Virus record (IMG/VR): IMGVR_UViG_3300016471_000863
DNA length: 64,000 bases
Reading direction: 5' to 3' (one strand)
Origin: a virus
Part shown: one piece after another, positions 1 through 20,271 of the stretch
Position numbering within the stretch: position 1 is the first letter of the stretch
How the letters are laid out: every line of letters starts with the position of its first letter
Made by a program: the position numbers and the translations under genes
The notes under the pieces: model-generated
Seen by the model: the letters and a program-made list of their open reading frames with translations, nothing else
What the model was told of the DNA's origin: nothing
Database searches by the model: none

Positions 1-882
1 ACCGCAAACAGCAGCCTCTAGTAATGGCAATCCAAATCCTTCACCACGAGTTAGAGATACCAAAGCTTTTATTTTTGGATGCTTGTATAATCCAACAATC
101 TCTGCGCTCGTCATTTCTCCGTGTAGTAAATAAAATTTTGGACCTACACCCTTACGAGTTTCTGATATTAATTTTGTTAATACTGAAACGCAATTAATTT
201 CATCTAAAACTGTTTGCCTAGCCATATTTGTTTTTACAATGACTCCAACATTTGGATTATCAGCAAAAGCTTCATTAAACCATTTTATGGTATAAGGAAT
301 GTTCTTTCTGTCATTCTCTGGATTATTTCCCGTAAATTGAGAAAAAATTAAGAAATTAAAATCTGTTTCTAATTCAAGATCTGAAAGCGGAAGGAGCGTA
401 TTGTCCAAACATTCGGCAATAAAAGATTCTGGTACTACCTCTACCTTTGTAGTTACCTCTCCTGTGTTGGTTAAAACGCTTTTAACAAATTCAGAAGGCA
501 CAATAACTAAATCCATTCGATTAACTGCCGAAAGCCAGGCTGGGTTGCATTTATCTGCCTCTACAGCAGCAGTTAATCCAATGTTATATTCTGCTAGGAA
601 TGGATTCCATTCATTTGGTAACTGAAGCTGTAAACTTACGTCATAATGTGGTAGCTGTTTTGTGCTTTGCACAACTCTGCCAACTAAACCATCCTCTGCT
701 TCTGGATCTATTAACCATGGGGTTGCGCCCCAAGGTAACGGTTCGCAAACGACTTCTAAATCATTTCTAGAGTCTTGCAATTGAAAAAGCCAACGTGCTA
801 TTTGTCTAGCATGAACACCATAGCCACTCTGCGATAATAGCGGTGCTCTTAATATTACAACCTTTTTCTTATTCTCACTCAT
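1..882 (-). CDS. Glycosyltransferase, GT-B/GT4-like (runs off the left edge; not in ORF track)
   Basis: Reading from ATG at 882 gives MSENKKKVVILRAPLLSQSGYGVHARQIARW...GQFTGNNPENDRKN...LTRGEGFGLPLLEAAV, ending in the EGFG-x4-E GT4 motif; starts 2 nt after the stop of the upstream GT. Confidence 0.88.
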   Translation of the reverse strand, partial: MSENKKKVVILRAPLLSQSGYGVHARQIARWLFQLQDSRNDLEVVCEPLPWGATPWLIDPEAEDGLVGRVVQSTKQLPHYDVSLQLQLPNEWNPFLAEYNIGLTAAVEADKCNPAWLSAVNRMDLVIVPSEFVKSVLTNTGEVTTKVEVVPESFIAECLDNTLLPLSDLELETDFNFLIFSQFTGNNPENDRKNIPYTIKWFNEAFADNPNVGVIVKTNMARQTVLDEINCVSVLTKLISETRKGVGPKFYLLHGEMTSAEIVGLYKHPKIKALVSLTRGEGFGLPLLEAAVCG

Positions 883-884
883 GT

Positions 885-2339
885 TCACTTGGCTTTCCTT
901 TCAATTTTTTTTGCCGTAAATCCTGCTCTTATATTTTTATCTAAATCTATTAGATTTTGATCTATCGTTACTGATTTTGATGAATTTTGTACGGGTTTAT
1001 TCTGTGCCGAAGGCAATATTGGAATTAGCTTTTTAAGCTTCCATTTTTTATTTGATTTATTTTTAAATTTTTCTATTGTTTTTTCTAACGTATCATCCCA
1101 CTGTTTTACAATGGTTTCAAAATTAAATTCACTATCAACATAAGCAATATTCTTTTCTGCCAATTGCTTTTTCTCTTCTGGAGAAAGATCATGAATTTTT
1201 CGAAATGCACTAGCTAGTTCTTGAGTTCCGAAATAATCTTCATAGATATATGGAACTAGTTGCGAGCCAACTAAGCTTCTTTTTACTGCTTCTAAACCAA
1301 CGCCATGTTCCGTGCCATCTCTATGGTCTACTACTTGTCTAGTCATGCCACCGGTTTTTAATGCTATGATTGGTTTGCCGCACATCATTGATATCATAGT
1401 CGATAAACCAAATCCTTCATTTTTAGAAACGTTTACACAGCAATCAGTTATATTGTGTAATATATTCATTTCATTAAATTGAAGCCTTTGATTTGAAAAC
1501 CAAACATTGTTTTGTAATCCAAGTTGCTCAGACACCGCCAATAAATTTGGTCCTTCTGGATCGTTTGGATCTGTGTGCATGATTAACACAGCTTTCTTGT
1601 GTCCCTTTTCCTGTTCTAGACGATTTAAGAAAACTTTCCAAGAATCAAGCAAATCAGCAGGCATTTTACGAGTAGCATTACGATTTACCCACAGAACCTT
1701 AAACCAATCTGCCTTGTCTCCAAAATGCTGTTTTGATAGTTGTTGTTTTTGTTCCTCTGGCAAAGGAAAATAAACATTCTTTGGAAATGCATGTGGAATG
1801 TAGTGTGTTTTATCCGGAAAATTTGGCTTTACTAATTCGTATGTTTTATACGATAAACAATTTATAAGATCAGTGCTTTCATACCATGGAAAATTAAATT
1901 TTGGATATGGATCATTATCCCAAACATGCCAGTAAGTAATTGGACAAATTTGTTTTATTTCATCTGCCATTTCCCAAACCCAAATAAATTGTCTTGGATC
2001 TGTGAAAAGTAAAAGCGCATCTGGTTTTTCAGCATATAATATGCTTTTTAACATATCTTTATTGCCAAAACCATCTACAGGTTTAATAACAAAATCTGGG
2101 TTTACGGCAATTGTATCGTAATTGGCGTGCTTAATTGCTCCGCCAAGGCAGCGGAATGAATACTTGCCAGTTTTTATTAAACCCTCTATTAAGAATCTTG
2201 CTTGAACACCTACTCCAGAAGGAGCCAATGGATGATCTGATAGAACTACTATTTTTTTCTTTTTTACCGGTTTTATGAAAAAGTCTTCATCATCCAATAA
2301 TGATGAATCATTCGTAAGCAAACTCTCTTGTTCAGACAT
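885..2339 (-). CDS. Glycosyltransferase family 4-like
   Basis: SDHPLAPSGVG N-terminus, NRNATRK, NEGFGLSTMISMMCGKPII; resembles the adjacent partial GT. Confidence 0.9.
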   Translation of the reverse strand: MSEQESLLTNDSSLLDDEDFFIKPVKKKKIVVLSDHPLAPSGVGVQARFLIEGLIKTGKYSFRCLGGAIKHANYDTIAVNPDFVIKPVDGFGNKDMLKSILYAEKPDALLLFTDPRQFIWVWEMADEIKQICPITYWHVWDNDPYPKFNFPWYESTDLINCLSYKTYELVKPNFPDKTHYIPHAFPKNVYFPLPEEQKQQLSKQHFGDKADWFKVLWVNRNATRKMPADLLDSWKVFLNRLEQEKGHKKAVLIMHTDPNDPEGPNLLAVSEQLGLQNNVWFSNQRLQFNEMNILHNITDCCVNVSKNEGFGLSTMISMMCGKPIIALKTGGMTRQVVDHRDGTEHGVGLEAVKRSLVGSQLVPYIYEDYFGTQELASAFRKIHDLSPEEKKQLAEKNIAYVDSEFNFETIVKQWDDTLEKTIEKFKNKSNKKWKLKKLIPILPSAQNKPVQNSSKSVTIDQNLIDLDKNIRAGFTAKKIERKAK

Positions 2340-2415
2340 TTTTTCTAACTCCTAAGTGTTATTCAAAATATAACTTCTTGGTAGAAAAATGTTCAAAGAA
2401 ACACTAATTAGTTTT

Positions 2416-4623
2416 TTACTTTTTAGAGCCTTGCTGTTTCGCTAGATCGGCTTCATACATTAGAATTGCTAATTCTTTAAATGTAGTCTTTGGCTCCCAT
2501 CCCAAAATTCTTTTTGCTTTTGAAGCATCTCCTAACAATAGAGGAACTTCATGTGGACGAAATAATCTCCGATCAATCTTTACATGCTTCTCAATATCTA
2601 ATCCAGCGTGATTAAAAACTACTTCAAGAAATTCTCGTACTGTATGAGTTTCGCCAGTAGCAATAACATAATCATCGCCCTTTGGCTGTTGAAGCATTAG
2701 CCACATTGCTTCAATAAAATCTTTTCCATATCCCCAGTCACGTTTTGCTTCAAGATTGCCAAGATATAACGATTCCTGTTTTCCTAATTTTATATTAGCA
2801 GCAGCAATAGTAATTTTACGTGTTACAAAAGTTTCACCTCTTACTGGTGAATTGTGAACATGTGACAATCCCACTCCACAATGAAATGTACCAGATTCGG
2901 TTTCCAAATCATAAAACCAACCATCATATTCGTTTAATGAAATTATTTTCTTAACTTCATTTGATTTGATTTTTTTATGATGTATACCTTGTGGTATATA
3001 TCCACGGCTAATTTTCTGAATAAACTTTCTAGAAGCAACTCCATCTCTTGCAATCTTTCTTATGGGATTTCCAGACTCTATTTGTTTCTTAACTTCTAGA
3101 TATTTTGAATATGATCTTGATAAGCTTGACTTGCCATCAGAAAGACAATTTATATGATAATATATTTTGCTTCTCCCGTTCCTTTTTTCCGCTGTTACAT
3201 TAAAATCTTGCCCAGTAACAGATTTTAAAAGATATATCAAGCCAAGACCTAAAGTTGGAGAATTGGTTGTAAAACTCTTATATGAGTAAGTACATGAATT
3301 TTTCTTTAATCCATCTCCTTCGTTATATCCGTCAAGAAATGCCTTCTGCACTTCAGTATTAGAATTCAATATCCATTTAGGTATTTTTTTACTGCCATTT
3401 TCCGTATAAAGATCATGTGCATATGCATTTATCCAAGACCTGGCTCCATTTAAATTTAATTGCCAAATATTTTTAATACCAGTAAATCCAGATTTGGATA
3501 AATACCAAGAAGTTTTAGATTCTGTTGATATAGTCATCCAGATTTGTTCGTATTTTTCTAATATGTCTTTTTCTTTTCCAGTTAATCTAATTGCCGTTGG
3601 TTTACTTATATTACCTTCAGCAACAATAAATCCTAAAAGCTTTGCATTTATAATTTGTATATCGTTGCCTTCAGAAGAAATAGATTTAGGAATCACGTTA
3701 ACAACAGAAACCAAATCACCTTTTTCAATTTTGTCAAAATCTTTCGATTCACCATCCATCATTATATGAGGATGATTTCCGGTTGCAGAAACACAACCAT
3801 GAGCAACGTTTATTAAAGTTGTATTTTTATTTTCAATATCTGGTAAATGAGGATATCCAGATGCCCATGTTACTTTGGTCCAACCTTTTTGGTCCCAAAC
3901 TTGCAGATCAGTGTCAACGTGAGTTTGCTGATAAAATTTTTCACTTTCATTTATAGCTTGTTTTAAATCTTTTCTACTGTGATAACGAACTATTTCTGAT
4001 ATGGGCTTAATATCTATTTCTTCTTTTGAGCCTAATTTAAATATTAAAGGCATATCTCCGGTTATCGTTTCATGGTTGAATAAAATTCCGCAAGATATAT
4101 GAAGCCCGTAACCTTCACGATAATTACGGCAAAGGTTATGAGCATATAACTTGGCACAAGCATATGGAGAAGCTGGTGTCATGCGTGTCTCTTCATTCTG
4201 TGGAACACTAACGTTATCTCCATACATCTCCGAAGATGATGCTTGATAGAAACGTGCCTCCGGACAGATTAGCCTATAAGCTTCCAGAAGCTTCAAGGTG
4301 CCTCCACCTACTACGTCCAGGGTTTCCTCCGGAACTTCAAATGAAACCCTTACATGGCTCTGTGCAGCGAGGTTATATATCTCGTCGGGCTTATACTTGG
4401 TAAGAAGAGAATAGATAGAACTTGAATCGGTCATATTGCCATATTCAAGTTTAAAGTTTGGGTGACTAAATATCTCCATGTCATCAAGACGATCTGTTGT
4501 TATAAGAGAAGTACGTCGCTTCATACCTATAACACGATAACCTTTATCAAGAAGTAGCTTTGCTAAATAAGAACCATCCTGACCTGTTACGCCAGTTATA
4601 AATGCAGTCTTTTGTGTTGACAT
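2416..4623 (-). CDS. gmd: GDP-mannose 4,6-dehydratase with intein
   Basis: ITGVTGQDGSYL, NLAAQSHV, QASSSE, YACAK, GILFNHE / SPVRGETFVTRKIT, GNLEAKRDWG; 406-aa insertion between NHE and SP. Confidence 0.97.
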   Translation of the reverse strand: MSTQKTAFITGVTGQDGSYLAKLLLDKGYRVIGMKRRTSLITTDRLDDMEIFSHPNFKLEYGNMTDSSSIYSLLTKYKPDEIYNLAAQSHVRVSFEVPEETLDVVGGGTLKLLEAYRLICPEARFYQASSSEMYGDNVSVPQNEETRMTPASPYACAKLYAHNLCRNYREGYGLHISCGILFNHETITGDMPLIFKLGSKEEIDIKPISEIVRYHSRKDLKQAINESEKFYQQTHVDTDLQVWDQKGWTKVTWASGYPHLPDIENKNTTLINVAHGCVSATGNHPHIMMDGESKDFDKIEKGDLVSVVNVIPKSISSEGNDIQIINAKLLGFIVAEGNISKPTAIRLTGKEKDILEKYEQIWMTISTESKTSWYLSKSGFTGIKNIWQLNLNGARSWINAYAHDLYTENGSKKIPKWILNSNTEVQKAFLDGYNEGDGLKKNSCTYSYKSFTTNSPTLGLGLIYLLKSVTGQDFNVTAEKRNGRSKIYYHINCLSDGKSSLSRSYSKYLEVKKQIESGNPIRKIARDGVASRKFIQKISRGYIPQGIHHKKIKSNEVKKIISLNEYDGWFYDLETESGTFHCGVGLSHVHNSPVRGETFVTRKITIAAANIKLGKQESLYLGNLEAKRDWGYGKDFIEAMWLMLQQPKGDDYVIATGETHTVREFLEVVFNHAGLDIEKHVKIDRRLFRPHEVPLLLGDASKAKRILGWEPKTTFKELAILMYEADLAKQQGSKK
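2851..4068 (-). mobile_element. Intein with LAGLIDADG endonuclease in Gmd; first residue Thr
   Basis: Starts TITGDMPL, block B ATGNH, endonuclease motifs LLGFIVAEG and FLDGYNEGDG, block F WFYDLET, ends VHN before Ser; removal restores NHESP. Confidence 0.92.
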
Positions 4624-5570
4624 TATATTCCTCTTATATTCGGATATGCTATCTTAAACCAATCACAGGTCTTCTTTAAAGCAATATCAAATGGAGTATA
4701 GTCTTCTACACACCAGCTTGTCTTTTCTAATAATCTTTTATTTGACGAAGGTTTTCTGAATTGTCCTGATGGTTTATCTGTATTAAAAACTAATTTGCCA
4801 TCGTATTCAAGATATTCAACAAGCCGCTTTGCTACAGAAGCTATCGAGTGTTCTTCTGTGTTCCCGATATTGAGCGGGTGTTCTTCATTGTATTCTTCTG
4901 AGACTTTAATGAGTATACGGGCAATATCTCCAGCATAAGTAAACTCTCTTAGGGGGCGACCGTCTCCCCATATTTCTACAGTAGGTTTGTTGTTGAGTTT
5001 GGCTTCCCATATTTTTCTCATAAGAGCTGGGATAACATGACCATCTTCCAAATGGAAATTATCATGCTCGCCAAATAGATTATTTGGAATGACGGTAACA
5101 TAGTTGACTCCATACTGCTTACGATAAGCCCTCGTCTGCACATCTAGCATCCTTTTAGCATAAGCATAGCCAAAGTTGCTATCATGTGGTGGTCCAAGGT
5201 GTAACTGATCTTCTGTGAGCGGATAGGAGACGTATGGAGCATCTGGATAGACACAGGTTGATAATACGGAAACTACTTTTGGCACATTGAAAAACAAACA
5301 TGAACTTAAGACGTTTGTATTGATAGCAATATTTTGATCATAAAAGCTGCCAACAAATTCTGTGTTTGCTTTTACGCCGCCGACACGAGCAGCCAAATGA
5401 TATACGCAATCAATCTTGCTGTTTGCAATGTAGCTATCTACATTTTCTTTATTGGTCAGATTTAATATATCTGAACCAGGGCTTAGTATTAGTTTTGATT
5501 GGTCTGTCAATTCTTTGATTAATGCAAAACCCAACATTCCTCTTCCGCCGCTAATAAATATATTTTTCAT
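4623..5570 (-). CDS. fcl: GDP-L-fucose synthase
   Basis: GGRGMLG, HLAARVGG, STCVYP, YAYAKR, HVIPAL, WGDGRPLREF; adjacent to gmd. Confidence 0.93.
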   Translation of the reverse strand: MKNIFISGGRGMLGFALIKELTDQSKLILSPGSDILNLTNKENVDSYIANSKIDCVYHLAARVGGVKANTEFVGSFYDQNIAINTNVLSSCLFFNVPKVVSVLSTCVYPDAPYVSYPLTEDQLHLGPPHDSNFGYAYAKRMLDVQTRAYRKQYGVNYVTVIPNNLFGEHDNFHLEDGHVIPALMRKIWEAKLNNKPTVEIWGDGRPLREFTYAGDIARILIKVSEEYNEEHPLNIGNTEEHSIASVAKRLVEYLEYDGKLVFNTDKPSGQFRKPSSNKRLLEKTSWCVEDYTPFDIALKKTCDWFKIAYPNIRGI

Positions 5571-6559
5571 TGTTTGCTTGAAAGTTGAGCACTAATCCAA
5601 AGATATGTTTTTTCCAATCCATATGCTAACGGTTGAGATACCTTCCAACCAATTTTTTCTTCATATAGTCTATTATCTGAATTTCTTCCTCTAACTCCTA
5701 TTGGTCCTGGAATATGTTTTATTTTTATTTCTTTTTTTGCAATATTAGAAATAATCTCAACAAATTGATTAATGCTTACCATTTCTTCGGAACCAATATT
5801 AACTGGTCCAATAAAATCCGAAGCCATTAAACGCAATACAGCTTCAACACATTCATCAATGTATAAAAAGCTTCTTGTTTGTTCGCCATCGCCCCAAACT
5901 TCTATAGTGCCACCATTTTCAGAGGCAGCAACTTTTCTACAAAGAGCTGCTGGAGCTTTTTCTTTTCCATTATTCCATGAACCATATGGTCCAAAGATAT
6001 TATGGAATCTCGCTATTCTTACATCAAGACCATAATTTCTATTATAAGCAAGATATAGGCGTTCACTAAATAATTTTTCCCAGCCATATTCGCTATCTGG
6101 TGCGGCCGGATATGCACTATCTTCTGAGCATTTAGGATTTTCTGGGTCTTCCTGATTGTAGGCTGGGTACATACAGGCAGACGATGAGTAGAAAATTTTT
6201 GGACGCTTTTTAAATTTTACTGCCGTATCAGCCACATTAAGATTTATTGTAGCAGAATTATGCATTACATCGGCGTCATGTTCGCCGGAAAATATATAAC
6301 CAGCGCCGCCCATATCTGCTGCCAATTGATATACTTCATCAAATCCTTCTGTAAATTTTTCACCAACAGACATTGATCGATAAACTTCTTCAGGATTTCT
6401 TAAATCAGCAATGAAAAATTCATCAGCGATAGAACGAATGTTTGTATATTCATGTTCTTTTATATCAACGCCACGAACCCAATATCCAAGTTCCTTAAGA
6501 CGTTTTACCAAATGACCACCAATAAATCCACCTGCTCCACACACCAATGCTTTTTTCAT
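5567..6559 (-). CDS. GDP-mannose 3,5-epimerase-like NAD-dependent epimerase
   Basis: GAGGFIG, LAADMGGAGYI, SSSACMYP, YGWEKL, EKAPAALCRK, GVRGRNSDN, as in the GME subfamily. Confidence 0.85.
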   Translation of the reverse strand: MKKALVCGAGGFIGGHLVKRLKELGYWVRGVDIKEHEYTNIRSIADEFFIADLRNPEEVYRSMSVGEKFTEGFDEVYQLAADMGGAGYIFSGEHDADVMHNSATINLNVADTAVKFKKRPKIFYSSSACMYPAYNQEDPENPKCSEDSAYPAAPDSEYGWEKLFSERLYLAYNRNYGLDVRIARFHNIFGPYGSWNNGKEKAPAALCRKVAASENGGTIEVWGDGEQTRSFLYIDECVEAVLRLMASDFIGPVNIGSEEMVSINQFVEIISNIAKKEIKIKHIPGPIGVRGRNSDNRLYEEKIGWKVSQPLAYGLEKTYLWISAQLSSKQ

Positions 6560-7389
6560 TTTTGCTTCTCCATAAAATCTATAATTTTCTTAATTCCTTC
6601 TTTTAAATTAATTTCTGGTTTCCAAAATTTCAACACATATTCATCTGGCTCATTTCTCTTGTCTTTTTGAACCGTATCTTTTGATTCTGCCGGAGTTATT
6701 TTTACTCCGCCAAAATTTTCCGAAATAGCTTCTGCTACATCTAGTATTGTATTCCATTTAAAATTTGTTATATGGTATTCTTTTTTTCTTTCCAAAGAAT
6801 CATATAATTTACTTAAAATAAGTAAAGCATTTGCACAATCATCTGCGTGTAAAAACTGTCTTACTTCTGTCCCATCAGTAAGCATTTTTATTTCTTTTTC
6901 ATTTTTCGCTTTTAAAATAAAATCAGTTATGACATGTGATTTTTCCAAATTTTTTTCTGGTCCGTATACATTCCAAAATTTTACAGTAATTCCATTTAAT
7001 GAATCGGTATATCTTTCTCCAATTGCTTTTGCTACACCATATGGTGAATATGACATATTGGACATTTGACTTGATGCGAAAATAAATGGTTTTTTATATC
7101 GATCTAATAATTCAAAAGTATTTGACATTAACTTTACATTATTATGAAGAAATTCAAAAGTATGCTGATACTTTGATAGATATCTTGAACCTCCAACATC
7201 AAATGCCAAGAAAAACACAAAATCTGCATCTCGAATATACGTTTCTAGCAAAATATTTTTATCAATTCTTAAATCTTTTAAAGAATCATCTTCTATATCA
7301 AATTCTAAAACTTGATAATTTCTTTCTTTTAAGAAATTAACTAATGGATAACCTATTTGACCAGCAGATCCAAGAACCAAGTATTTCAT
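6556..7389 (-). CDS. NAD-dependent epimerase/dehydratase (extended SDR)
   Basis: GSAGQIG, FASS, YGVAK, NVYGP, RQFLH. Confidence 0.88.
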   Translation of the reverse strand: MKYLVLGSAGQIGYPLVNFLKERNYQVLEFDIEDDSLKDLRIDKNILLETYIRDADFVFFLAFDVGGSRYLSKYQHTFEFLHNNVKLMSNTFELLDRYKKPFIFASSQMSNMSYSPYGVAKAIGERYTDSLNGITVKFWNVYGPEKNLEKSHVITDFILKAKNEKEIKMLTDGTEVRQFLHADDCANALLILSKLYDSLERKKEYHITNFKWNTILDVAEAISENFGGVKITPAESKDTVQKDKRNEPDEYVLKFWKPEINLKEGIKKIIDFMEKQK

Positions 7390-8576: not shown

Positions 8577-9221
8577 TTACTTTCTAATTCCTATATAAAA
8601 TGAATTTATTGAATCTCTAACTTTGTTTCGGAAAGGATATGCTGTTACATTTCTTTTATCTAAAATTTTTTGTTTCCAATGTGATTCGGAAAAAACAGAC
8701 TGGTGTAAATGAATAACATTTCCTTTGCTGTCTATTCTATCATCTGGACCTAGATTTATACTAGCAATAAAAATACCATCTGGTTTTAATTTTGATATTA
8801 TATTTTCAAAAAAAACTTCTAAATGATCTGGATGAATATGTTCTACGACTTCCCATGCAGATATTAAATCAAATAAAATTTCATCTTCTTTTTCATCTAC
8901 TACTTTAAATGTTTTTGTTAAATCTGCTGTCCATAAAACATTTTGATAATGTGCAGGCCAATTAAATTGTTTATTTTTAATATTGTAATCGCTTCCTTCA
9001 ATTCCAAATGATAAATGACCCCTATTGTGAAAATCAACAGCCAATTGACCACCGGCACATCCAATGTCCATTATGTTTATTTTTTTGTTTTGAAAGTATG
9101 ATTCTACTTCTTCTATGTAGCCAGAATGCGTTGAATTATCATTTTTTGTTCCTACTGGAAATATATGGTCTGGCGACGTTATTGCAACTGGAAAATCTGT
9201 TATTACTTTATAATGTTTCAT
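8577..9221 (-). CDS. Class I SAM-dependent methyltransferase
   Basis: MDIGCAGG, FDLISAWEVVEHI, LKPDG. Confidence 0.88.
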   Translation of the reverse strand: MKHYKVITDFPVAITSPDHIFPVGTKNDNSTHSGYIEEVESYFQNKKINIMDIGCAGGQLAVDFHNRGHLSFGIEGSDYNIKNKQFNWPAHYQNVLWTADLTKTFKVVDEKEDEILFDLISAWEVVEHIHPDHLEVFFENIISKLKPDGIFIASINLGPDDRIDSKGNVIHLHQSVFSESHWKQKILDKRNVTAYPFRNKVRDSINSFYIGIRK

Positions 9222-11092: not shown

Positions 11093-11590
11093 TCACAAGA
11101 TGGAATGTAGATAAATTTGATGAACACATTCAACGATTCCATAGTCAGAACTATTAACCCACATATCAAATAATTTATATTTAGAGTTTAATGTTTTTAA
11201 TTTATTGTTTTCTTGAAATCCAGTTAAAGAAATAAAATTTATTTTTTGTTCTGAGCAGAAACGTGCAGCATTTAGCATGTTTATAGAATTGCCACTCGAT
11301 GAAATTATTATTACTAAAGTTTTATCATCTGCAAATTGTTTTAAAAATTCAGTATTTGCATTTTCCATTCCAAAATCATTTATATAACAAGTAAGTCTAG
11401 ATGGATCTGAAAATGTAAAAGATTTTTTTCCTAATTTTTTTGAATAATCTTGAGAAATATGTGAAGCAACAGCTTGACTTCCCCCATTTCCTAGAATTAT
11501 AATTTGGCTGTAACTTTCTACAGCTTCTTTTAATGGCGCTGTTTTTTCATATGCTAAATTTATTTCTTCTATTAATTTTTCTTTATTCAT
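11093..11590 (-). CDS. gmhA: SIS-domain phosphoheptose isomerase (GmhA-like)
   Basis: GNGGS, NDFG, ISSSGNS, LTG, E-x-x-H. Confidence 0.8.
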   Translation of the reverse strand: MNKEKLIEEINLAYEKTAPLKEAVESYSQIIILGNGGSQAVASHISQDYSKKLGKKSFTFSDPSRLTCYINDFGMENANTEFLKQFADDKTLVIIISSSGNSINMLNAARFCSEQKINFISLTGFQENNKLKTLNSKYKLFDMWVNSSDYGIVECVHQIYLHSIL

Positions 11591-12570
11591 ATTTTATTTC
11601 CAATTACTCCACTTTCATTTACGTGAATCGAAATTAAATTTCCAAAATAATTTTTATTTTTTTCATTTTTAACGATATTAATAAAATTTTGAGTTTTTTC
11701 TTTGTTTACAAAAATTAAAAAATAGCCTCCGCCGCCAGCACCACATAATTTTATTGTCTGTATAACGTTGTCATTTAATAATGACATTAAAAAATCATCA
11801 ATTTTTTTTAATTCAAAAAAATCTGCTATCAAAGAAGATGTTTTTTTCTTTTGTTCCCAGGAGTCATTCAATAACTTTTCAAATAAAAAATAGTTTTTAT
11901 CTTCAATTGCCTTTTCTGTTTCTTCTACTAATTTTAAAAGTGGATAACTTTTATCTACATTTACACTTTTTAATATTTCTGTTGAGTTTCTCTTAATGTT
12001 CGTATGCAAAAGAAATAAATCATATTTTCTATAAATAAATTGATTATCAAAATATGTAAAAGAAGGTCTTTTATTTTTAACAAAAGAAATCTTTTTAAAT
12101 CCTCCAATGGCACACCCATAAGAATCTTGATATCCAGTTAATGGATTAAAAATTCTTTCTAGTTCTAGAGATATTTTAGATATTTCAAAATCTGATAAAG
12201 CCAAACCTTTATAAACACTCACTGCTTTTACACATGCGATTGTATATGCAGAACTACTAGCCAAACCAGAACCTTCCGAAAGAATATCTGTATTGAAAGA
12301 AATGGTAATCGGGTCTTTTATGTCAAAAAATTCTAAAACTACTCTCGCAATATCATTTTTAATTTCTTGAACAAATTTTACTTCTTCTTTTTTAGAATAA
12401 TTTATAATAAATTTATCAGTATGATTATCGTGAATAGAAATGTAACAAAATAAATCAGAAGGAAAACTGATTACTGATCCTGTATTATATTTTTGTATAA
12501 ATGCATCTAAGTCTGTAGATCCTCCCACTAAAGAAATTCTTAACGGACATTTAGCTACAATCATTGTCAT
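11587..12570 (-). CDS. hddA: GHMP kinase, heptose 7-phosphate 1-kinase (HddA)-like
   Basis: PLRISLVGGSTD, GSGLASSS, GYQD, KLCGAGGGG. Confidence 0.85.
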   Translation of the reverse strand: MTMIVAKCPLRISLVGGSTDLDAFIQKYNTGSVISFPSDLFCYISIHDNHTDKFIINYSKKEEVKFVQEIKNDIARVVLEFFDIKDPITISFNTDILSEGSGLASSSAYTIACVKAVSVYKGLALSDFEISKISLELERIFNPLTGYQDSYGCAIGGFKKISFVKNKRPSFTYFDNQFIYRKYDLFLLHTNIKRNSTEILKSVNVDKSYPLLKLVEETEKAIEDKNYFLFEKLLNDSWEQKKKTSSLIADFFELKKIDDFLMSLLNDNVIQTIKLCGAGGGGYFLIFVNKEKTQNFINIVKNEKNKNYFGNLISIHVNESGVIGNKI

Positions 12571-13460
12571 AAAATAATTTCTTTCCCAAAATTTTTACGA
12601 TATTCATCTTTTAAAAGATTTAAATGCCAAATATCTAAATTTTTGAAAAACCCAGGTCCACATTCTTCAAAATAATTCATAATTCTTTGAAGTCGCCAAT
12701 CTTTTTTTAAAGAAAACATATCAGGCATTATATAATCTTTATACCATTCTTCTGGTGCCAAATTTACATATACATCCGAACTATCTAGGGTTATCGAATA
12801 TTGTTGATTTATTGCATTTTCTGCGCCAGGACGCTTTATTAATTCTGCACAACGCAAATAACATTGTTTTATTTGAAAATTGGTCCAATCTGAAAACTGA
12901 TAATGCATTATTGCACCAAATTTAGGATTCAATCTTAATAACGTTTGTTCATTGTTGATGCCAGGTGTTCTGCCGACATGTAGCCATTTATAATCATAAT
13001 AAATTTTCTTATCATCACATACAATAAAATCTTTAAAATTGTTACTCCAAACGCTGTTATCATTTCTGTAATGATGAATTGATTTCCACATAGCTAACCA
13101 TTGCATGGTTAATTTTTGTCCTGGTTTTAAACTTTCTAAAATTTTTTTTGCATTTTTTGAAAATTGTGCTGTAATAGCTTCGTCAGCATCTATGCAAATG
13201 AAATGAGTACCACCAGCTTCTCTTCCTAGAGAAAGAAGTTTTTCTCTAATATGATGTTCGCTCCATCCTAAATTTGTTATTTTTTCATTGTCATAAACTT
13301 TGCATCCAAAAGAAATTGCTATTTCTTTACTTTTGTCACTCGAAGCGTCATCAATACAGATAACTTCATCGCAGACATTTTTTAAACTGGATAAACAAGT
13401 TGGAAGTATCCATTCTTCATTTTTAAAAGGAATTAGAGCAATTAATTTCATGTTTCTCAA
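12567..13460 (-). CDS. Glycosyltransferase family 2-like
   Basis: KNEE, IDDASSD, IDADE (DxD), MHY. Confidence 0.85.
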   Translation of the reverse strand: MRNMKLIALIPFKNEEWILPTCLSSLKNVCDEVICIDDASSDKSKEIAISFGCKVYDNEKITNLGWSEHHIREKLLSLGREAGGTHFICIDADEAITAQFSKNAKKILESLKPGQKLTMQWLAMWKSIHHYRNDNSVWSNNFKDFIVCDDKKIYYDYKWLHVGRTPGINNEQTLLRLNPKFGAIMHYQFSDWTNFQIKQCYLRCAELIKRPGAENAINQQYSITLDSSDVYVNLAPEEWYKDYIMPDMFSLKKDWRLQRIMNYFEECGPGFFKNLDIWHLNLLKDEYRKNFGKEIIL

Positions 13461-13466
13461 TATATG

Positions 13467-14303
13467 TTATATGTTATTTTTTATAAATTCATTATAATTT
13501 GGAACAAATTTTTCTATAGGCTCCCAATTGCCATCAATCAAAATTTCATTTATTTTATAATTTTTAGTCTTTTCTAGCCAAGCTTTCTCTATCTTATCAT
13601 AAATTCCATATCTTAATTCTATGACAGTTCGTTCAGTTGGCTGCTTGCCGTCACCATTAGTTGAAGCTCCTTTACCTTCATTAAGATAATAACCTAAAAC
13701 TCCTGGCGTGCATAGTATGTTTGAATTATGTATTCCCATTCTTACTGCTAGATCAAAATCTGCTCCACTTTTTAATTGCTCATCAAATAAACCAGATTTT
13801 TCAATCAATGTTTTTCTAAACATAAAAAATGGTCCCAAGACCATTCCTCTTGTAAATTCTTTGTGACCTGGATAATAAATTGAATGATCAATTAACTGAC
13901 CATTTTTTGAACCAAAGTTTTTAACTATTATAAAATTACCGTTTGCAATATCACATGATGAATTCAATTCCAATAATTTAACTTGTTTTTCTATGCTATC
14001 TGGAGTTCTAAGATCATCAACATTCCAAATTGTTAGAAATCTTCCAGATGCTTCTTTGATGCATCTATTCATTGATGTTCCTATTGGCTCAACAGGATTA
14101 ACTACAATGTGCTTTAATCTATTAGGGTATTTTTCTTGAAAATCTTTTACCCAAATTAATTCTTCTTCGGTTGGTTCATTGTGATCCAATACAACTTCAA
14201 GATGATTAAAAAATGTTTGTTTTGGTAATTCTTCTAAAAAAAGTTTCAGATATTTTTGCATTCTAAAACATGGAGTTATTGTTGATGCTACTATATTAGT
14301 CAT
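13467..14303 (-). CDS. Glycosyltransferase family 2
   Basis: ITPCF, NRCIKEASG, NVDD, GLFDE, ADFDL. Confidence 0.85.
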   Translation of the reverse strand: MTNIVASTITPCFRMQKYLKLFLEELPKQTFFNHLEVVLDHNEPTEEELIWVKDFQEKYPNRLKHIVVNPVEPIGTSMNRCIKEASGRFLTIWNVDDLRTPDSIEKQVKLLELNSSCDIANGNFIIVKNFGSKNGQLIDHSIYYPGHKEFTRGMVLGPFFMFRKTLIEKSGLFDEQLKSGADFDLAVRMGIHNSNILCTPGVLGYYLNEGKGASTNGDGKQPTERTVIELRYGIYDKIEKAWLEKTKNYKINEILIDGNWEPIEKFVPNYNEFIKNNI

Positions 14304-14983
14304 AACCCATCTTTCATTTCATCGGAAACAAAAATAGTATTAATTTCATCGACATAGAATTGAAAATAACCATTGTTTGTAATATAGTTCCTCAACTCTT
14401 TGCACGAATTTGTAAAATTAGAAAATTTTTCAAAACTAGGATGCTGGTCTTCTATTTCAACTATCATTACTTTTGGTTTCCAGATATTTAAGTCAAACGA
14501 CTTAAACACTTCATATTCAAATCCTTCAACATCTACAACAAGTAAATCGAAGTTTACAGGAACTTGAGATTTTTGCAAAACCTTTTCCAATGGCATTTGT
14601 TTGACTTTAAAAGTTTTACCTTGGTGGTGCCCTTTTGCCCAATCAATTTGCTCATACATCTCAACTTGTTCTTTTTTCAAAGTTGTTAAACTATGACCAT
14701 AATATATGTCAACTATTTTTTCCTCTGGACCTATTGCGACATTTGCAACTAAAACTTTATTTTTAGAATGCCTATTGGCACATGCAGTTGCCAATTCTTT
14801 TATTGGCTCTATATACAATCCATTCCAACCGCAATCTGCTAAACCAGAAGTATTAGAAAAACTCTCTCCATCGTAAGCGCCTACTTCAACAAAATGGCCA
14901 TCTAATTTATTTGGTCCAAATAATTTTTCATATATATTAGACAAATTTTTTATTTGACAAGATTTTGATAGACTATAACTCAT
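14300..14983 (-). CDS. FkbM-family methyltransferase
   Basis: FVEVGAYDG, SNT, GWNGLYIEP, DLLVVDVEGFE. Confidence 0.9.
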   Translation of the reverse strand: MSYSLSKSCQIKNLSNIYEKLFGPNKLDGHFVEVGAYDGESFSNTSGLADCGWNGLYIEPIKELATACANRHSKNKVLVANVAIGPEEKIVDIYYGHSLTTLKKEQVEMYEQIDWAKGHHQGKTFKVKQMPLEKVLQKSQVPVNFDLLVVDVEGFEYEVFKSFDLNIWKPKVMIVEIEDQHPSFEKFSNFTNSCKELRNYITNNGYFQFYVDEINTIFVSDEMKDGL

Positions 14984-14992
14984 TTATATTTC

Positions 14993-15844
14993 TCACTTGA
15001 ATAGATTATAATAATTCCTTGCTGATATTTCTAAGGAATGATTTTTAGTTATATAATCTCTTGGAGAATATATTTTTTTATTTACGGAATTTAAAAAATC
15101 TTCAAATTTTTTTAAATCTACATTTTCAACTATTTCGCCACATTTTTCATTAAAATATGGAACACTTGTTGCTGGCACCGTTTCATAAGCACCATCGTAA
15201 TTCCAAGTAGACTTGTTAAACACAAAGCATGGTAGATTTGTAGATAATATCTCCATGTAGCCAATTCCTTGTGATTCTGTATTGGTGAGTAATATACCAA
15301 AATTTGCCCAACTACAGGTTTCAAGTAACTGTTCCTCTGTATAAGAACCATATTGTAATTCTCTATATTCTATATTATATTTTTTTAAGATTTTTCTTAC
15401 AACATGTAAATCTTGTTGAGAACGATTTTTAAAATAAAGAAGACATTTCAAGTTATCTTCATTTCTACTTTCTACTTTCCATTTTTCTGTATCGATTCCT
15501 ACAGACCAAATATCAATTTGTGCGTGATCAAGTTCTGAGAATCTTCGATATAAATCGAAGACCCATTTTGATGGCACATTAAAATGTTTGAAATATTTTG
15601 AAAATTTTTTATTTTCTCTAGGTAAAACAAATAAATTCGGACCTACTAAAGAGTTTGCACTGCATCTTTCCCATCCATTTATTAACTGTAATATACCAAT
15701 GTGAGAATCTATTCGTTGTGATAGTAAACTTTCATTTCCAAAAACAATATTATTTTTTTGAAGACCTAATTTTAGATTTTTTACAACTTTTCCTGGTCCT
15801 CTGTAGTTCTCGTTGTCGTACAATAATACTATAGGTTTTTCCAT
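14993..15844 (-). CDS. Glycosyltransferase, GT-B-like
   Basis: GPGKVVKN, VPSKWV, GIDT, ESQGIGYMEILSTNLPCFV. Confidence 0.75.
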   Translation of the reverse strand: MEKPIVLLYDNENYRGPGKVVKNLKLGLQKNNIVFGNESLLSQRIDSHIGILQLINGWERCSANSLVGPNLFVLPRENKKFSKYFKHFNVPSKWVFDLYRRFSELDHAQIDIWSVGIDTEKWKVESRNEDNLKCLLYFKNRSQQDLHVVRKILKKYNIEYRELQYGSYTEEQLLETCSWANFGILLTNTESQGIGYMEILSTNLPCFVFNKSTWNYDGAYETVPATSVPYFNEKCGEIVENVDLKKFEDFLNSVNKKIYSPRDYITKNHSLEISARNYYNLFK

Positions 15845-15845
15845 T

Positions 15846-16490
15846 TTATTTTCTCAAGTACAAGGCATCTCCCCAATTATATTGAGTGTTTACAGTAATA
15901 ATTCTTTCAAACCCAAAAACTTTAAGATATTCATCAATTTCATTTACTAAAGGAACATTTTTATATAAATGCTCAAAATTAACTTCTGTATAAATGCATT
16001 TGATAGATTCTAATCTTAATAAATCTTTAAATCCTTTCAGTACTTTTAATTCAGCACCTTGTACATCAAGATTAATAAAATCAAATTTTTGAATTTCAAA
16101 TTTTTGTTTATTTGCATGGTAAAATGAATTAAATGAAATAGTTTTTAATTTTTTAGTTTCAACAACTTTAATATGAGGATAATGTTTTTCTACAGTTCCA
16201 AGCTCTAAAATAGAGCTTGCTTGTGGATCATTTGTTATATGAAACTCAACATCTTCATTGTCGTTATCAGATAAAACTTGACAAAAATATTCCTGATTAA
16301 CATTTGAATATCTGTTTGTATTATCAAAAAGATTTTTCATTAATGTCTTATTAGCCTCAAACCAAACAACAGCTTTAACGTTTGCCTCTGCATAATCTTT
16401 TATCTCTTCACCATGATGAGCACCAATATGAATTACTCCGTTTATTGGGTTACCATATGTTTGAAGACATTTTTTAAAACTTATTAACAT
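15846..16490 (-). CDS. FkbM-family methyltransferase
   Basis: IHIGAHHGEE, WFEAN, SSIL, DFINLDVQGAELKVL, YTEV, WGDALY. Confidence 0.9.
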   Translation of the reverse strand: MLISFKKCLQTYGNPINGVIHIGAHHGEEIKDYAEANVKAVVWFEANKTLMKNLFDNTNRYSNVNQEYFCQVLSDNDNEDVEFHITNDPQASSILELGTVEKHYPHIKVVETKKLKTISFNSFYHANKQKFEIQKFDFINLDVQGAELKVLKGFKDLLRLESIKCIYTEVNFEHLYKNVPLVNEIDEYLKVFGFERIITVNTQYNWGDALYLRK

Positions 16491-16499
16491 GATACTTAA

Positions 16500-17045
16500 T
16501 CAAAGCTTTATATAAAAAGCTTCTCCCCAGGTTTCATGACTTGCTCTTGTTAACGATCTTACAAAGCCATAACTTGATAAAAAATCGTCCATTTCTTTTG
16601 TACCACGAATCTTAGTATAAATTGCTTTAAAAGCCGAATGTCTTGGATCAGATAGATATTGTCCAAAACCTTCTAAAACATTTAATTCATTACCAAATTC
16701 AACTTCATTGATTATTAAATCGTAATTTTCTAATTCTACTAATGCAAGATTCTTCTTGTAGAAAGAATCAAATCTCATGCTTGTACCACTTCTGTCAATA
16801 TTCGAAAATATATCACAAACATAATGTTGCTTTGCCGGTAAAAATTTTGTCGAATTATATAAATCTGCCATCCTCATCTTTTCAGATTCCATCCAAAGGA
16901 TATTGGAAATACCAGATTCAACTAATAACGTACCATTAGTTCCTAAATTTTTGCCAAAATAAATGGCACCTTTTAATTTATCATTTCTTTTTTCTTGATA
17001 CGTTTTTATACATTCTTTTATTGGAATTAACATTTCATTCTCCAA
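16500..17045 (-). CDS. Degenerate FkbM-like paralog of the adjacent methyltransferase
   Basis: Colinear with 15846-16490 (MLIPIKECIKTY vs MLISFKKCLQTY; ELNVLEGF vs ELKVLKGF; WGEAFY vs WGDALY) but SAM-binding motifs altered. Confidence 0.7.
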   Translation of the reverse strand: MENEMLIPIKECIKTYQEKRNDKLKGAIYFGKNLGTNGTLLVESGISNILWMESEKMRMADLYNSTKFLPAKQHYVCDIFSNIDRSGTSMRFDSFYKKNLALVELENYDLIINEVEFGNELNVLEGFGQYLSDPRHSAFKAIYTKIRGTKEMDDFLSSYGFVRSLTRASHETWGEAFYIKL

Positions 17046-17853
17046 TCCACTTTAAGGGAAGCTCAACATGAACAGTATTATTAGAATAATTGATTATGTG
17101 TTCATAAGATAATCTTTTACCAGAAAGAAAATTGTTATTTAATTCTTCTGCGCTTAATATGTTGCCATGTCGATTGGCATATACATCCTGTACTATATTT
17201 GCAGGTATATTTAACAATTTACTCCCTTTTGCATAGCATGACATATATTGTTTCGTGCGATCTGCCGTTGCCGCAAGACCAGCTTCTAATTGATTTGGAT
17301 TTTTAAAATTAATTTGATTTATTTTTTCAAATATAAAATCTGTTCTATAAATGTTTCCATCAACAGACATTGGATAATTCCAATCACCAGCAGCCGCCGT
17401 CCAATTCCAAATGCATCCCTTTACAAATTTTGGTATTGAATTTGGATTATTTGTAGCATAGCAGTGATCAATGCCATTCCAAAGTCTCAAGGAATGCGCT
17501 ATAATCTCATTGTTGTTCTTAACAAACTGTATTTCATTGTCATTTAATGACCATTCCGATTTAAAAACAATATCATCAACCAAAAACATGGTCAACTTGT
17601 TATTAATATTTAAACTCTTAATTAAAGACTGTTTAAATGAACCATATAAATTATCTGAAATAAATTCTACAGAATTCATATTCTCTTGCTGGCTAGACAA
17701 TTGAAGATAACTTTTTTGAAATAATTCATTGCTAAAATTATAGCATACATTAATTTTTAACGAATCTGATTCTCTGAGAGAAGATTTAAAACTTCTTAAA
17801 AGTAAATCTAATTGAGCAGCTCTATCTTTTGAAAATATAATAATATTAAGCAT
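17035..17853 (-). CDS. Putative glycosyltransferase (GT-A-like)
   Basis: IIIFSKDRAAQL, FLVDD, YPMSVDG; island context. Confidence 0.65.
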   Translation of the reverse strand: MLNIIIFSKDRAAQLDLLLRSFKSSLRESDSLKINVCYNFSNELFQKSYLQLSSQQENMNSVEFISDNLYGSFKQSLIKSLNINNKLTMFLVDDIVFKSEWSLNDNEIQFVKNNNEIIAHSLRLWNGIDHCYATNNPNSIPKFVKGCIWNWTAAAGDWNYPMSVDGNIYRTDFIFEKINQINFKNPNQLEAGLAATADRTKQYMSCYAKGSKLLNIPANIVQDVYANRHGNILSAEELNNNFLSGKRLSYEHIINYSNNTVHVELPLKWIGE

Positions 17854-17868
17854 TTGTCAAATTCCGTT

Positions 17869-18603
17869 TCATAAATTTTCTAGCCATGCTGGATTTGTAG
17901 AGGTATTTCTCCTATAGAAATATAAGGATTCCATTACTATGGAAGTTTTTTGCAGCAATAAAGTCATTTTGGTGTTGAAGTCACTGTCTTCTGCACGCTG
18001 ACATCTTAATCCCATGTTGCCTGGTAAAAATTTCATACCATTTTCCCAAAGTTGTTTATAAAACAAACATGATGCACCATGAGCTTCAAAATTTGGTCCA
18101 ACATAATAATGATTAATCCCCGATGTTTTAAACCCAAGATGTACAAATTTTGTAACAGTTGAATGATCCATCACTTTTGGATTTAAATTTTTATTTACAC
18201 TTTTATATTTTTGAATATCATCTTCTGAGTAACAATGAAAAAAGCCACACAAATTATGATAGCTTTTCATTCCTTGCATAACTTCATATTGAAGTTCTAA
18301 TCTGTATTGGCTGCAAGCGTCATCTGCGTCCTGGAGGGTAATAAGCTCTCCAGTTGCTTTTTCAATCGCCGTATTTAAAGCAAACCACTTTCCTCTATTC
18401 TTTTCTAAAAAGATAGTTTTTAATGGAAATCTTAAGTTTTCTTTTTGCAAAGATAAAATCTTTTCTTTACTGTCATCCGTAGAACAATCATCTATAACAA
18501 TCAATTCTATATTTTCATATGATTGTTTTTGAATTGAATCAATTGCAGTTTCAATATATTGAGAATGATTATAATTTGTTACAATAACAGATATTTTCTT
18601 CAT
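17869..18603 (-). CDS. Glycosyltransferase family 2 (start revised to 18603)
   Basis: MKKISVIVTNYN, IDDCSTD, QDADD, AEDSD; ATG overlaps the upstream TGA (ATGA coupling). Confidence 0.9.
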   Translation of the reverse strand: MKKISVIVTNYNHSQYIETAIDSIQKQSYENIELIVIDDCSTDDSKEKILSLQKENLRFPLKTIFLEKNRGKWFALNTAIEKATGELITLQDADDACSQYRLELQYEVMQGMKSYHNLCGFFHCYSEDDIQKYKSVNKNLNPKVMDHSTVTKFVHLGFKTSGINHYYVGPNFEAHGASCLFYKQLWENGMKFLPGNMGLRCQRAEDSDFNTKMTLLLQKTSIVMESLYFYRRNTSTNPAWLENL

Positions 18604-19274
18604 TTGGGTTTGCTCACAACAGCCGCATAATATCCATTCCACCAGCCCGCAATATCGTGATCTGTATTGTTTGGTGTTTTCATTACCCATTCTTTATGAA
18701 TGGATAAATTCAAGTCTCGGAAAGCTTCTCTGGTTCCAACTTCAACATCATCTGTCCAATTCCAGTCATCGCATAAATAAACAAAATCATCTTCTACAAA
18801 ATCTATAAATTTTGTCAAAGCCTCATAGTGATGTTGTTTTTTGTGAGGACCATCATACAAACATATTGGAAACCGTCCATATTCCTCAATGTGTAAGTCT
18901 TCAGAAGTAATTTCAAAACAATTTTTTTCTAAAAACTTTATTGGAAGATTGTCTATATCAATGTATTTTTGAACATTTGATAAGAATTCATATTTAGGTC
19001 CAGTAAATTCAGACCAATTATCGCAAGCAACAGAATATTCGTTTACTTTACTGCCATTTAATGCAGAGCAAAATGTAGATCCTGCCCAAACTCCAATTTC
19101 TAAATATCTACCACCTATTCCTTGAACAAGATTGTTTAAAAAATGCCTAGTTTTTGTACCAGAAAATCCCTTTATTCTTGTAAGTTCTGGGTTTAATAAC
19201 GACTTATATTGTTCGGCATTTTCTAAAGATTTATCAATTATATTTAACCAATTATTAATTTTATCAGATCTCAT
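18600..19274 (-). CDS. Class I SAM-dependent methyltransferase (Methyltransf_24-like)
   Basis: YLEIGVWAGST, LYDGPH, CDDW. Confidence 0.85.
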   Translation of the reverse strand: MRSDKINNWLNIIDKSLENAEQYKSLLNPELTRIKGFSGTKTRHFLNNLVQGIGGRYLEIGVWAGSTFCSALNGSKVNEYSVACDNWSEFTGPKYEFLSNVQKYIDIDNLPIKFLEKNCFEITSEDLHIEEYGRFPICLYDGPHKKQHHYEALTKFIDFVEDDFVYLCDDWNWTDDVEVGTREAFRDLNLSIHKEWVMKTPNNTDHDIAGWWNGYYAAVVSKPK

Positions 19275-20271
19275 GTTTTTTAACCCAATCGTTTATAAAA
19301 AATGGCAACGGTTTATCAATTCGTACACTATTTGTTTTTTGTCCAGTCCAAGCAGTATGAAATATATGACCACCCGTTTCACTTGCTAGTTGTTTGGCTT
19401 TCATTTTAATTTCTTCACCAGAAACATCATTCAATGATTTTTGAAAAAATGGATTCCAACCTTCAGGCTTAGAAGCCTTCTCTCCATATAATGAAAGCCA
19501 AGAATCATTCCAAAAATATTTGTATTTATGTATTTTTGAAGCAATACTCCACCAAGAAAAATGGTAAACTGTTGGTAAGTTTTCTACACTAGCATTGAAC
19601 CATTTTTCATATTCTTTTGCAGCATTCGTATCTGAAACTGCCTTTACTCTTATGTCGTCTACTTCTTTTGTTATAAAGTTTAAACACGGCACAATAAGCC
19701 CATTTTTTTTATTTATATAATCACAACCATCGCTTCCAGGTTTTGAATAGAGTAATCCATCCTTCTCCCATCTCAAAGGAGATGGAATACCATGAGTAAT
19801 ATTTGGATCATTTCTAGAAATTCTCCACTTCCACGGATTAACATCAACCCTTACCTTTTCTATTCCACCCCAATATTCAACAACAGGTAAAGCTAATAAC
19901 GGCACATCTTTCAAATAATTTGTTTTTTGCAATACAGATTCTATTTTCTTTCTCGAATTGGGCTCTACAACTTCATCTGCATCAATTTGCCATAAAAAAT
20001 CACCAGTACATTGCTCACGAGCAAATGCTTTGGTCATACCATCATATATTCCATGATTAGGAGCATTCCAGGGAATTTGGATTTGATAAACATTGAGTGA
20101 TGGAATTTCATCCATTAAAGCCTCTAAACGAGCCGAGGTGCCATCTTCTTTATCTGATGAGTCTACCACTACAATCTCATCACAAAAATCCGCTAATGAC
20201 CTTATGGTGGCTTCAAATGGATAGTCCATCTCTACAGCATTTCTTATTGTTGTATATCCACTTATTTTCAT
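19264..20271 (-). CDS. Glycosyltransferase family 2-like
   Basis: ISGYTTIRN, DYPF, DEIVVVDS, QIDADE, YHF. Confidence 0.85.
   Translation of the reverse strand: MKISGYTTIRNAVEMDYPFEATIRSLADFCDEIVVVDSSDKEDGTSARLEALMDEIPSLNVYQIQIPWNAPNHGIYDGMTKAFAREQCTGDFLWQIDADEVVEPNSRKKIESVLQKTNYLKDVPLLALPVVEYWGGIEKVRVDVNPWKWRISRNDPNITHGIPSPLRWEKDGLLYSKPGSDGCDYINKKNGLIVPCLNFITKEVDDIRVKAVSDTNAAKEYEKWFNASVENLPTVYHFSWWSIASKIHKYKYFWNDSWLSLYGEKASKPEGWNPFFQKSLNDVSGEEIKMKAKQLASETGGHIFHTAWTGQKTNSVRIDKPLPFFINDWVKKHEI

Follow-up and report, generated by a model that had tools for sequence, protein, structure and literature searches.

Introduction

Publications since 2005 have described large glycan gene clusters in T4-like jumbo phages, among them the 24 genes of P-SSM2 and the 22 genes of S-SCSM2R with its 13 glycosyltransferases (GTs), and they have been read as systems for modifying the host surface (PMC1079782, PMC12801897, PMC7824862, PMC7029224). 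Here, we describe a glycan island in the IMG/VR virus record IMGVR_UViG_3300016471_000863, of which a stretch of 64,000 nucleotides was analysed (the window). About 24 co-oriented minus-strand genes run from position 20271 of the window down past position 1; they form a conserved core and a variable cassette, and the island is membrane-free. While this kind of island is already known, the added value lies in a sharpened hypothesis on the acceptor of the glycan, for which we tentatively favour the virion proteins of the phage, and in a cultured model, Flavobacterium phage immuto.

The island shares with the clusters of cyanophages and pelagimyophages its setting in T4-like phages, the big blocks of GTs, short-chain dehydrogenases/reductases (SDRs) for nucleoside diphosphate (NDP) sugars, kinases and methyltransferases, the variability among relatives and the frequent proximity to tail genes. 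The hallmarks of the jumbo-phage glycan ('LPS'/CWSM) clusters, namely clustered GTs with NDP-sugar enzymes and a content that varies between relatives, are both present. It differs from those clusters in belonging to a freshwater lineage related to immuto, in being anchored by a conserved pair of GT4-type GTs and in the absence of 3-deoxy-D-manno-octulosonate (KDO) or PgaA-type envelope genes. Moreover, the host-surface target that the literature assigns to those clusters is not favoured by the present evidence.

A second group of systems modifies the virus particle itself. In chloroviruses (PBCV-1, NY-2A), soluble viral GTs working in the cytoplasm glycosylate the capsid, and these viruses encode a GDP-mannose dehydratase and a fucose synthase and have methylated sugars. 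The island resembles them in that its GTs are soluble and that no export step is encoded, as is characteristic of autonomous virion glycosylation by viruses, and in the predicted structure of one member of the conserved pair, GT484, which superposes on NY-2A B736L (3oy2) with a VIA Z of 36.9. However, this fold match is tied with those to non-viral GT4 enzymes such as MshA and sucrose-phosphate synthase, there is no sequence-level orthology, and chloroviruses differ in having a eukaryotic alga as host and the major capsid protein as acceptor. In mycobacteriophages, GTs O-glycosylate capsid and tail-tube subunits (Freeman et al. 2023, cited in PMC12619734); as far as that citing account goes, these are likewise phage-encoded GTs acting with no export machinery, but with few GTs, no sugar-nucleotide pathway and in siphoviruses of Actinobacteria.

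Finally, the moraphages are freshwater jumbo phages with genomes above 200 kb, predicted Bacteroidota hosts and four core glycosyltransferase orthogroups, and a Rhodothermus phage lies nearby in the capsid tree (PMC12619734). The phage described here is alike in freshwater habitat, genome size above 200 kb, predicted Bacteroidota hosts and GTs in the core genome, and may belong to or near this group, for which that study does not describe an island architecture.

Results

The island is carried by a large, uncultured freshwater phage. Positions 1–63072 of the window match the IMG/VR virus contig G000 (128,872 bases; only 28% complete), which shows synteny with the 320-kb IMG/VR contig G001 (81% complete by CheckV) across more than 50 kb. 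The latter encodes a T4-type major capsid protein (Gp23, 218 bits) and a T4 prohead protease (S77). Since this synteny is joined by tail and baseplate genes to the left of the island, a cellular contig, the objection that an earlier note on this DNA had raised against its own reading, is ruled out. Metagenomes of lakes and freshwater from 11 studies contain the same DNA; no RNA data set was present among the listed sequencing runs that carry it, and 45 kb of the window had no match among GenBank phages by megablast.

The ORF (open reading frame) listing and family scans show an unbroken run in which neighbouring genes overlap or are spaced by 0–25 nt, with the exception of gaps of 76 nt (2339/2416) and 81 nt (20271/20353); the last gene extends 302 nt to the left of the window. 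The run comprises nine GTs (a tenth lies at 22463), Gmd, an Fcl-like protein, GDP-mannose 3,5-epimerase (GME), two further SDRs, a GmhA-like, an HddA-like and a small HAD protein as well as five methyltransferases and one degenerate copy. The content that the earlier note had read from the sequence (about 23 coupled minus-strand genes with nine GTs, sugar enzymes and five methyltransferases) was thus upheld by the ORF listing and by family and structure searches. Its tenth GT also proved real, as the predicted model of this protein superposes on GT4 enzymes with a VIA Z of 18.5 (against 2jjm, rmsd 3.2 with 251 residues aligned).

The core and the cassette emerged from a comparison of related loci that was anchored first on the nuclease at 20353 and then on a 248-aa protein encoded left of the window. 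The order GT484, GT396, small membrane protein and 248-aa protein is kept in 51 of the 52 loci, and GT396 itself was found in 51 of 52. The identity of GT484 is 53–74% to 26 relatives of the lineage and 41% to one more distant, and that of GT396 is 56% to the copy in G001 and 32–33% in the phages immuto and Mel-JY01. On the other side, GT genes come after the nuclease in every related locus that reaches beyond it (11 of 12 loci). The genes between the nuclease and the GT pair, by contrast, differ from phage to phage: an Fcl-Gmd pair occupies the same place beside the GT pair in about half of the relatives, the cassette of G001 carries a GT6, a Polysacc_synt_2 protein and other methyltransferases, and that of locus L010 carries an HldE-like pair (PfkB kinase/cytidylyltransferase-like), a DegT protein and a GT-D. 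As an aside, the GT6 of the G001 cassette (L006:14388-15077; PF03414, 172 bits) belongs to CAZy family 6, the family of the blood-group A/B-type transferases. In more distant contigs the nuclease directly abuts the GT pair and the homologue of the GT at 22463 comes next; such homologues stand after the GT pair in L008-L010 and L016. A related-locus search with the 272-aa GT as the only anchor retrieved nothing.

The arrangement reaches into cultured phages. Homologues of the GT pair with 31–33% identity stand beside the same nuclease in a Flavobacterium and a Microcystis phage, the nuclease being adjacent to the pair or close by in these two cultured phages; immuto (vB_FspM_immuto) has the nuclease, two GTs (gp180/gp181) and then a sugar cassette, and Microcystis phage Mel-JY01 has the nuclease, GuaB, GTs and further genes. 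In Rhodothermus phage RM378, a GT484 homologue (24% identity) and the unannotated gene next to it are all that is present of the module.

A hydropathy scan (Kyte-Doolittle, 19-residue window, threshold 1.6) found no membrane segment in any island gene, which bears out the all-soluble pathway proposed in the earlier note; its one hit, in the gene at 9208, is the glycine loop of a Rossmann fold and not a membrane segment. No ORF resembling Wzx, Wzy, WecA-WbaP or an ABC (ATP-binding cassette) permease was detected in the 65.8 kb to the left of the window, elsewhere in the 129 kb or in 526 kb upstream of the 248-aa gene in 58 related contigs, and none resembling Wzx, Wzy, a priming transferase or an ABC permease across G001. 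The concern that wzx, wzy or a priming transferase might lie just left of the window was followed up, and none was found there, in G001 or in the 58 relatives. The locus therefore lacks what marks a Wzx/Wzy- or ABC-type O-antigen or capsule locus, namely a priming transferase together with either flippase and polymerase or an ABC permease. A few small ORFs with 4–5 transmembrane segments occur elsewhere in the genomes, none with a significant Pfam match; the best, to ABC_membrane, is below threshold (E 0.028, 14.5 vs 28 bits, for one 159-aa ORF of G001), and a GtrA-like or flippase-like assignment of these ORFs is unsupported by Pfam.

Discussion

With somewhat less than even confidence, we consider the phage's own virion proteins the most likely acceptor of the glycan. 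Since the GT pair is kept in phages that infect hosts from different phyla, the acceptor would be one that travels with the phage; judged from the alignments, the conservation of the pair points to more than the need of a host-specific glycan, which it far exceeds. This reading is also favoured by the position of the island, which has the direction of the baseplate module and continues into it, by the absence of export and priming genes in all relatives examined, by the inclusion of chlorovirus B736L among the structural matches of GT484 and by the match of the GT2 at 12567 to GmaR. For the latter GT, GmaR (22ao, E 3.9e-11), the cytoplasmic flagellin O-GlcNAc transferase, is the sole significant sequence match in the PDB.

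Candidate acceptor sites are provided by the motif [ST]G[ST], which is in excess over the composition expectation in tail and baseplate proteins of this phage (13 vs 2.4, 10 vs 2.0, 19 vs 7.1 and 9 vs 1.9 sites), in the orthologues of G001 and in tail proteins of immuto (gp101: 28 vs 9.9), while T4 gp34–gp38 show no such excess. Candidate acceptors in this phage include tail paralogues of 407–417 aa (28330-32037) and a 1034-aa fibre protein (32049-35153), and those in immuto include gp101, gp102, gp105, gp106 and gp109. A number of points weigh against the virion, however. The motif excess is correlative and has T4 as its single negative control, the structural matches of GT484 tie among many GT4 enzymes of unrelated acceptors, and in more distant relatives the GT pair lies in the replication region, away from the tail genes. 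The conserved membrane-anchored coiled-coil protein that directly follows the GT pair could position the pair at the membrane, and we know of no virion glycoprotein in any phage of this lineage. Lastly, the earlier note had proposed that a cytoplasmic pathway glycosylates a phage-made acceptor; the soluble pathway stands, but the absence of membrane parts does not decide the acceptor, because O-antigen and capsule GTs are soluble as well and could be served by priming and export enzymes of the host, so that absent exporters also fit a reliance on host machinery.

If virion proteins are glycosylated, we infer the following order of steps. The host would supply GDP-mannose, UDP-sugars, sedoheptulose-7-phosphate and S-adenosylmethionine (SAM). 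GDP-L-fucose would be made by the phage Gmd and Fcl, GDP-L-galactose or GDP-L-gulose by GME and other donors by the 4-epimerase and the further SDR, whereas the GmhA-like, HddA-like and HAD proteins would yield heptose-1-phosphate, which then needs a nucleotidyltransferase. The ten soluble GTs would assemble the chain in the cytoplasm, directly from nucleotide sugars, and the five methyltransferases would O-methylate it. Its invariant, acceptor-proximal part would most likely be laid by GT484 and GT396 (with the GT-B protein at 22463), and its strain-specific outer part would come from genes of the variable cassette. Tail and baseplate proteins rich in Ser/Thr-Gly-Ser/Thr would be the preferred acceptors, with the glycan added before or during assembly, a timing that we liken to that in chloroviruses and mycobacteriophages.

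One could go further and combine these elements. It is possible, and we suggest it with some reserve, that a freshwater T4-like jumbo lineage, to which thousands of metagenomic relatives belong, possesses an autonomous system for virion glycosylation in the cytoplasm, in which the GT4 pair primes [ST]G[ST] sites of tail and baseplate proteins and a hypervariable cassette adds strain-specific, O-methylated fucose, L-galactose and heptose, thereby generating phage 'serotypes', the first such case in phages of Gram-negative hosts. If true, this would change the view of host range, adsorption and virion stability in a widespread group of freshwater phages. The conserved GT pair, the lack of export genes in the relatives and the candidate acceptors make a sugar coating of the tail a concrete idea that is testable in the cultured phage immuto.

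The strongest rival is a remodelling of the host envelope, which we consider somewhat unlikely. Here, the phage GTs would act at the inner membrane face on lipid-linked intermediates of the host (WecA/WbaP-type priming), and the Wzx/Wzy or ABC systems of the host would export an altered O-antigen or capsule that blocks superinfection or alters recognition by grazers. Such a role has been assumed for the glycan clusters of aquatic jumbo phages for twenty years and is the published reading for P-SSM2, S-SCSM2R, jumbo phages and pelagimyophages, with experimental support offered in none of the papers concerned (PMC1079782, PMC12801897, PMC7824862, PMC7029224). The content of the island is of O-antigen type (Gmd/Fcl, heptose genes, GT2, GT4), its variable cassette resembles a serotype locus, the GT pair is followed by a conserved protein with a membrane anchor, and without a nucleotidyltransferase the pathway would lean on the host anyway. 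What speaks for the virion instead is that the GT pair is conserved over hosts of different phyla although host glycans differ, and that an export, polymerase or priming gene is found in 0 of 58 relatives; remodelling would further require that the Wzx, Wzy or ABC systems of the host accept foreign repeat units.

Another target in the cytoplasm or at the membrane, such as a phage protein outside the virion, a protein of the host, a glycolipid or a small molecule, for example as a protective or takeover product, is distinctly unlikely. The closest GT4 structures do include the small-molecule enzymes MshA, BshA and the sucrose-phosphate and trehalose synthases, which score level with the viral match, the GT484 homologue of RM378 and the gene next to it (a putative pair) lie isolated among replication genes, and a membrane anchor adjoins the GT pair. 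Yet a system of ten GTs and five methyltransferases with a variable cassette indicates a glycan of surface type that is long and diversifies, which would not be expected of a metabolite.

Hypermodification of DNA, in which the GTs would glycosylate a modified base for escape from restriction, is highly improbable. In its favour, the island adjoins a nuclease, a GMP-reductase-like gene and a prim-pol gene, T4 alpha-glucosyltransferase is among the GT-B fold matches of the protein at 22463 (Z 16.2, ranked below dozens of GT4 enzymes), and glycans of up to three sugars, heptose included, are known on DNA (bioRxiv 10.1101/2023.12.21.572611), but ten GTs with five methyltransferases go far beyond any such DNA glycan, no source of hydroxylated or hydroxymethylated pyrimidines (ThyA-family, TET/JBP or C5 DNA methyltransferase; PF00303, PF12851, PF00145; the TET search had no positive control) was found in the 28% complete G000 or in G001, and virion DNA of immuto consisted of dA, dC, dT and fdPreQ1 by liquid chromatography with UV detection and mass spectrometry, with no glycosylated nucleoside reported (bioRxiv 10.1101/2023.04.13.536721).

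Genes of the island

The genes are listed in Table 1, in which negative positions lie left of position 1 and L001 denotes the locus record of this phage that reaches left of the window.

Table 1. Glycan genes of the island with the conserved nuclease and the tenth GT upstream of it (window positions).
Feature	Position	Strand	Basis and remarks
GT396, conserved GT4-type GT	1..888, gene to -302 (L001:186-1376)	minus	396 aa in total, N-terminal 296 aa in window; PF00534, 38.5 bits
GT484, conserved GT4-type GT	885..2339	minus	PF00534; AlphaFold2 pLDDT 83; GT-B fold
Gmd, GDP-mannose 4,6-dehydratase split by a LAGLIDADG intein	2416..4623	minus	TIGR01472, LAGLIDADG_3
GDP-L-fucose synthase-like SDR (Fcl)	4623..5570	minus	best family NF047922, 245 bits, below cut-off of 500
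GDP-mannose 3,5-epimerase (GME)	5567..6559	minus	PDB 2c59, E 2.3e-95, 323 bits, full length
Short SDR, 277 aa, specificity unassigned	6556..7389	minus	PF01370, 94 bits; PDB matches to generic SDRs only
GT4-type GT, 386 aa	7413..8573	minus	PF00534, 43.5 bits
SAM methyltransferase	8577..9221	minus	PF13489, 45.9 bits
UDP-hexose/HexNAc 4-epimerase-like SDR	9208..10131	minus	PF01370, 189 bits; WbgU/WbpP-like, E ~1e-39; PDB 6dnt, E 5e-54
SAM methyltransferase	10138..10761	minus	PF13649 and PF13489
Small HAD-IIIA phosphatase, 103 aa, GmhB-like candidate	10778..11089	minus	TIGR01662, 29 bits, below cut-off
SIS-domain isomerase, GmhA-like	11093..11590	minus	PF01380; best families sedoheptulose-7-P isomerases, 52-57 bits, far below cut-offs
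GHMP sugar kinase, HddA-like	11587..12570	minus	NF049969, 96 bits, below cut-off; PF00288
GT2, N-terminal half GmaR-like	12567..13460	minus	PF00535
GT2	13467..14303	minus	PF00535, 37.8 bits
FkbM-type methyltransferase	14300..14983	minus	PF05050, 88.5 bits
Probable GT-B-like GT, weak call	14993..15844	minus	VpsD, E 0.004; no Pfam family
FkbM-type methyltransferase	15846..16490	minus	PF05050, 59.4 bits
Degenerate FkbM paralogue, possibly inactive	16500..17045	minus	26% identity to 15846-16490, E 7e-23, ~35-aa gap; no Pfam match
GT-A/GT-D-like GT	17035..17853	minus	TM 0.86-0.90 to GT clusters (PF08759 GT-D among them) in a structure search of the Atlas
GT2	17869..18690	minus	PF00535, 102.9 bits
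Methyltransferase, Methyltransf_24-like	18600..19274	minus	PF13578, 23 bits, below cut-off
GT2, first island gene	19264..20271	minus	PF00535
PD-(D/E)XK nuclease, conserved upstream neighbour, not a glycan gene	20353..21270	minus	PF12705
Compact GT-B (GT4-like), third conserved GT	22463..23395	minus	AlphaFold2 pLDDT 81

The model of GT484 has disordered ends, and its predicted fold reveals no extra domain for acceptor binding. The protein at 14993 is GT1-like only by language-model features and the weak VpsD match, and its nearest named Atlas clusters carry GT1 families; the GT call for the gene at 17035, which has no Pfam match, comes from structure alone. The first island gene recurs with 50–80% identity in L005-L007 at the same place after the nuclease, and the methyltransferase gene at 18600 is missing from the close relative L005.

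The assignment of Gmd is supported by 432.5 bits to TIGR01472 (equivalog cut-off 415), in two stretches around the insert. The intein of about 410 aa (about 2836-4065) is polymorphic, as metagenome contigs from other lakes join position 2835 directly to 4066, with 12 letters differing, which means that an intein-free allele of Gmd exists. Intein or endonuclease inserts are present in PhoH (37182-40688), ribonucleotide reductase and DnaB of this genome, too.

The heptose branch is represented by three divergent members of the GDP-D-glycero-alpha-D-manno-heptose pathway (GmhA, HddA, GmhB, HddC), all under their family cut-offs. The HAD protein has a homologue in L010, adjoining the PfkB kinase and the cytidylyltransferase-like gene, and another in L016. 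With regard to an HddC-type nucleotidyltransferase, PF00483 is absent from the records G000-G003 and has one weak match in G004. As no NTP_transferase was found in four records, the phage would rely on the host for GDP-mannose, and the heptose branch, so far as it is seen here, is incomplete. The fucose/L-galactose/heptose chemistry that had been put forward in the earlier note is hence plausible, except that its heptose branch is left without a nucleotidyltransferase in the DNA searched; beyond Gmd and GME, we infer the identity of the sugars.

Neighbouring genes

The island shares its orientation with the baseplate module and leads straight into baseplate genes. To its left follow the small membrane-anchored protein, the 248-aa protein, a legume-lectin-like protein and baseplate-J-like and ConA-like tail proteins; PHROGs returned no result for most structural and neighbouring proteins. 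The small membrane-anchored protein (132 aa, L001:1378-1776, window -702..-304) has a single membrane helix at its N-terminus and a tail that is acidic and probably coiled-coil, overlaps both neighbours (GT396 on one side, the 248-aa gene on the other) and is conserved in nearly all relatives; it might serve as a membrane tether or as an anti-sigma-like partner.

The 248-aa protein (L001:1766-2512, window -1438..-692) has at least 1929 homologues with 56–97% identity on phage contigs of up to 507 kb, and its gene always stands after the GT pair and ahead of the baseplate genes. A motif resembling sigma-70 region 2 can be seen by eye (KFNPEKGSKAFSYF..AKNWL); as searches in Pfam, PHROGs and PDB profiles gave no match, the sigma reading is unconfirmed. 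The T4 late-promoter motif TATAAATA occurs at 6 sites vs 10.9 expected and thus gives no information on timing, and no shared promoter motif was apparent by eye among 43 upstream regions.

The legume-lectin-like protein (189 aa, L001:2569-3138, window -2064..-1495; PF00139, 28 bits) is encoded in the stretch from the island to the baseplate genes, a position where G001 lacks it. At 25255-26660 of the window, two adjacent paralogues (222 and 237 aa) have in common their N-termini and a hydrophobic hairpin at the centre; neither matches a family. The GMP-reductase-like gene is immediately followed by a GC-rich hairpin with a T run behind it (21405-21435, minus strand); this resembles an intrinsic terminator, which would part this gene from the nuclease and the island.

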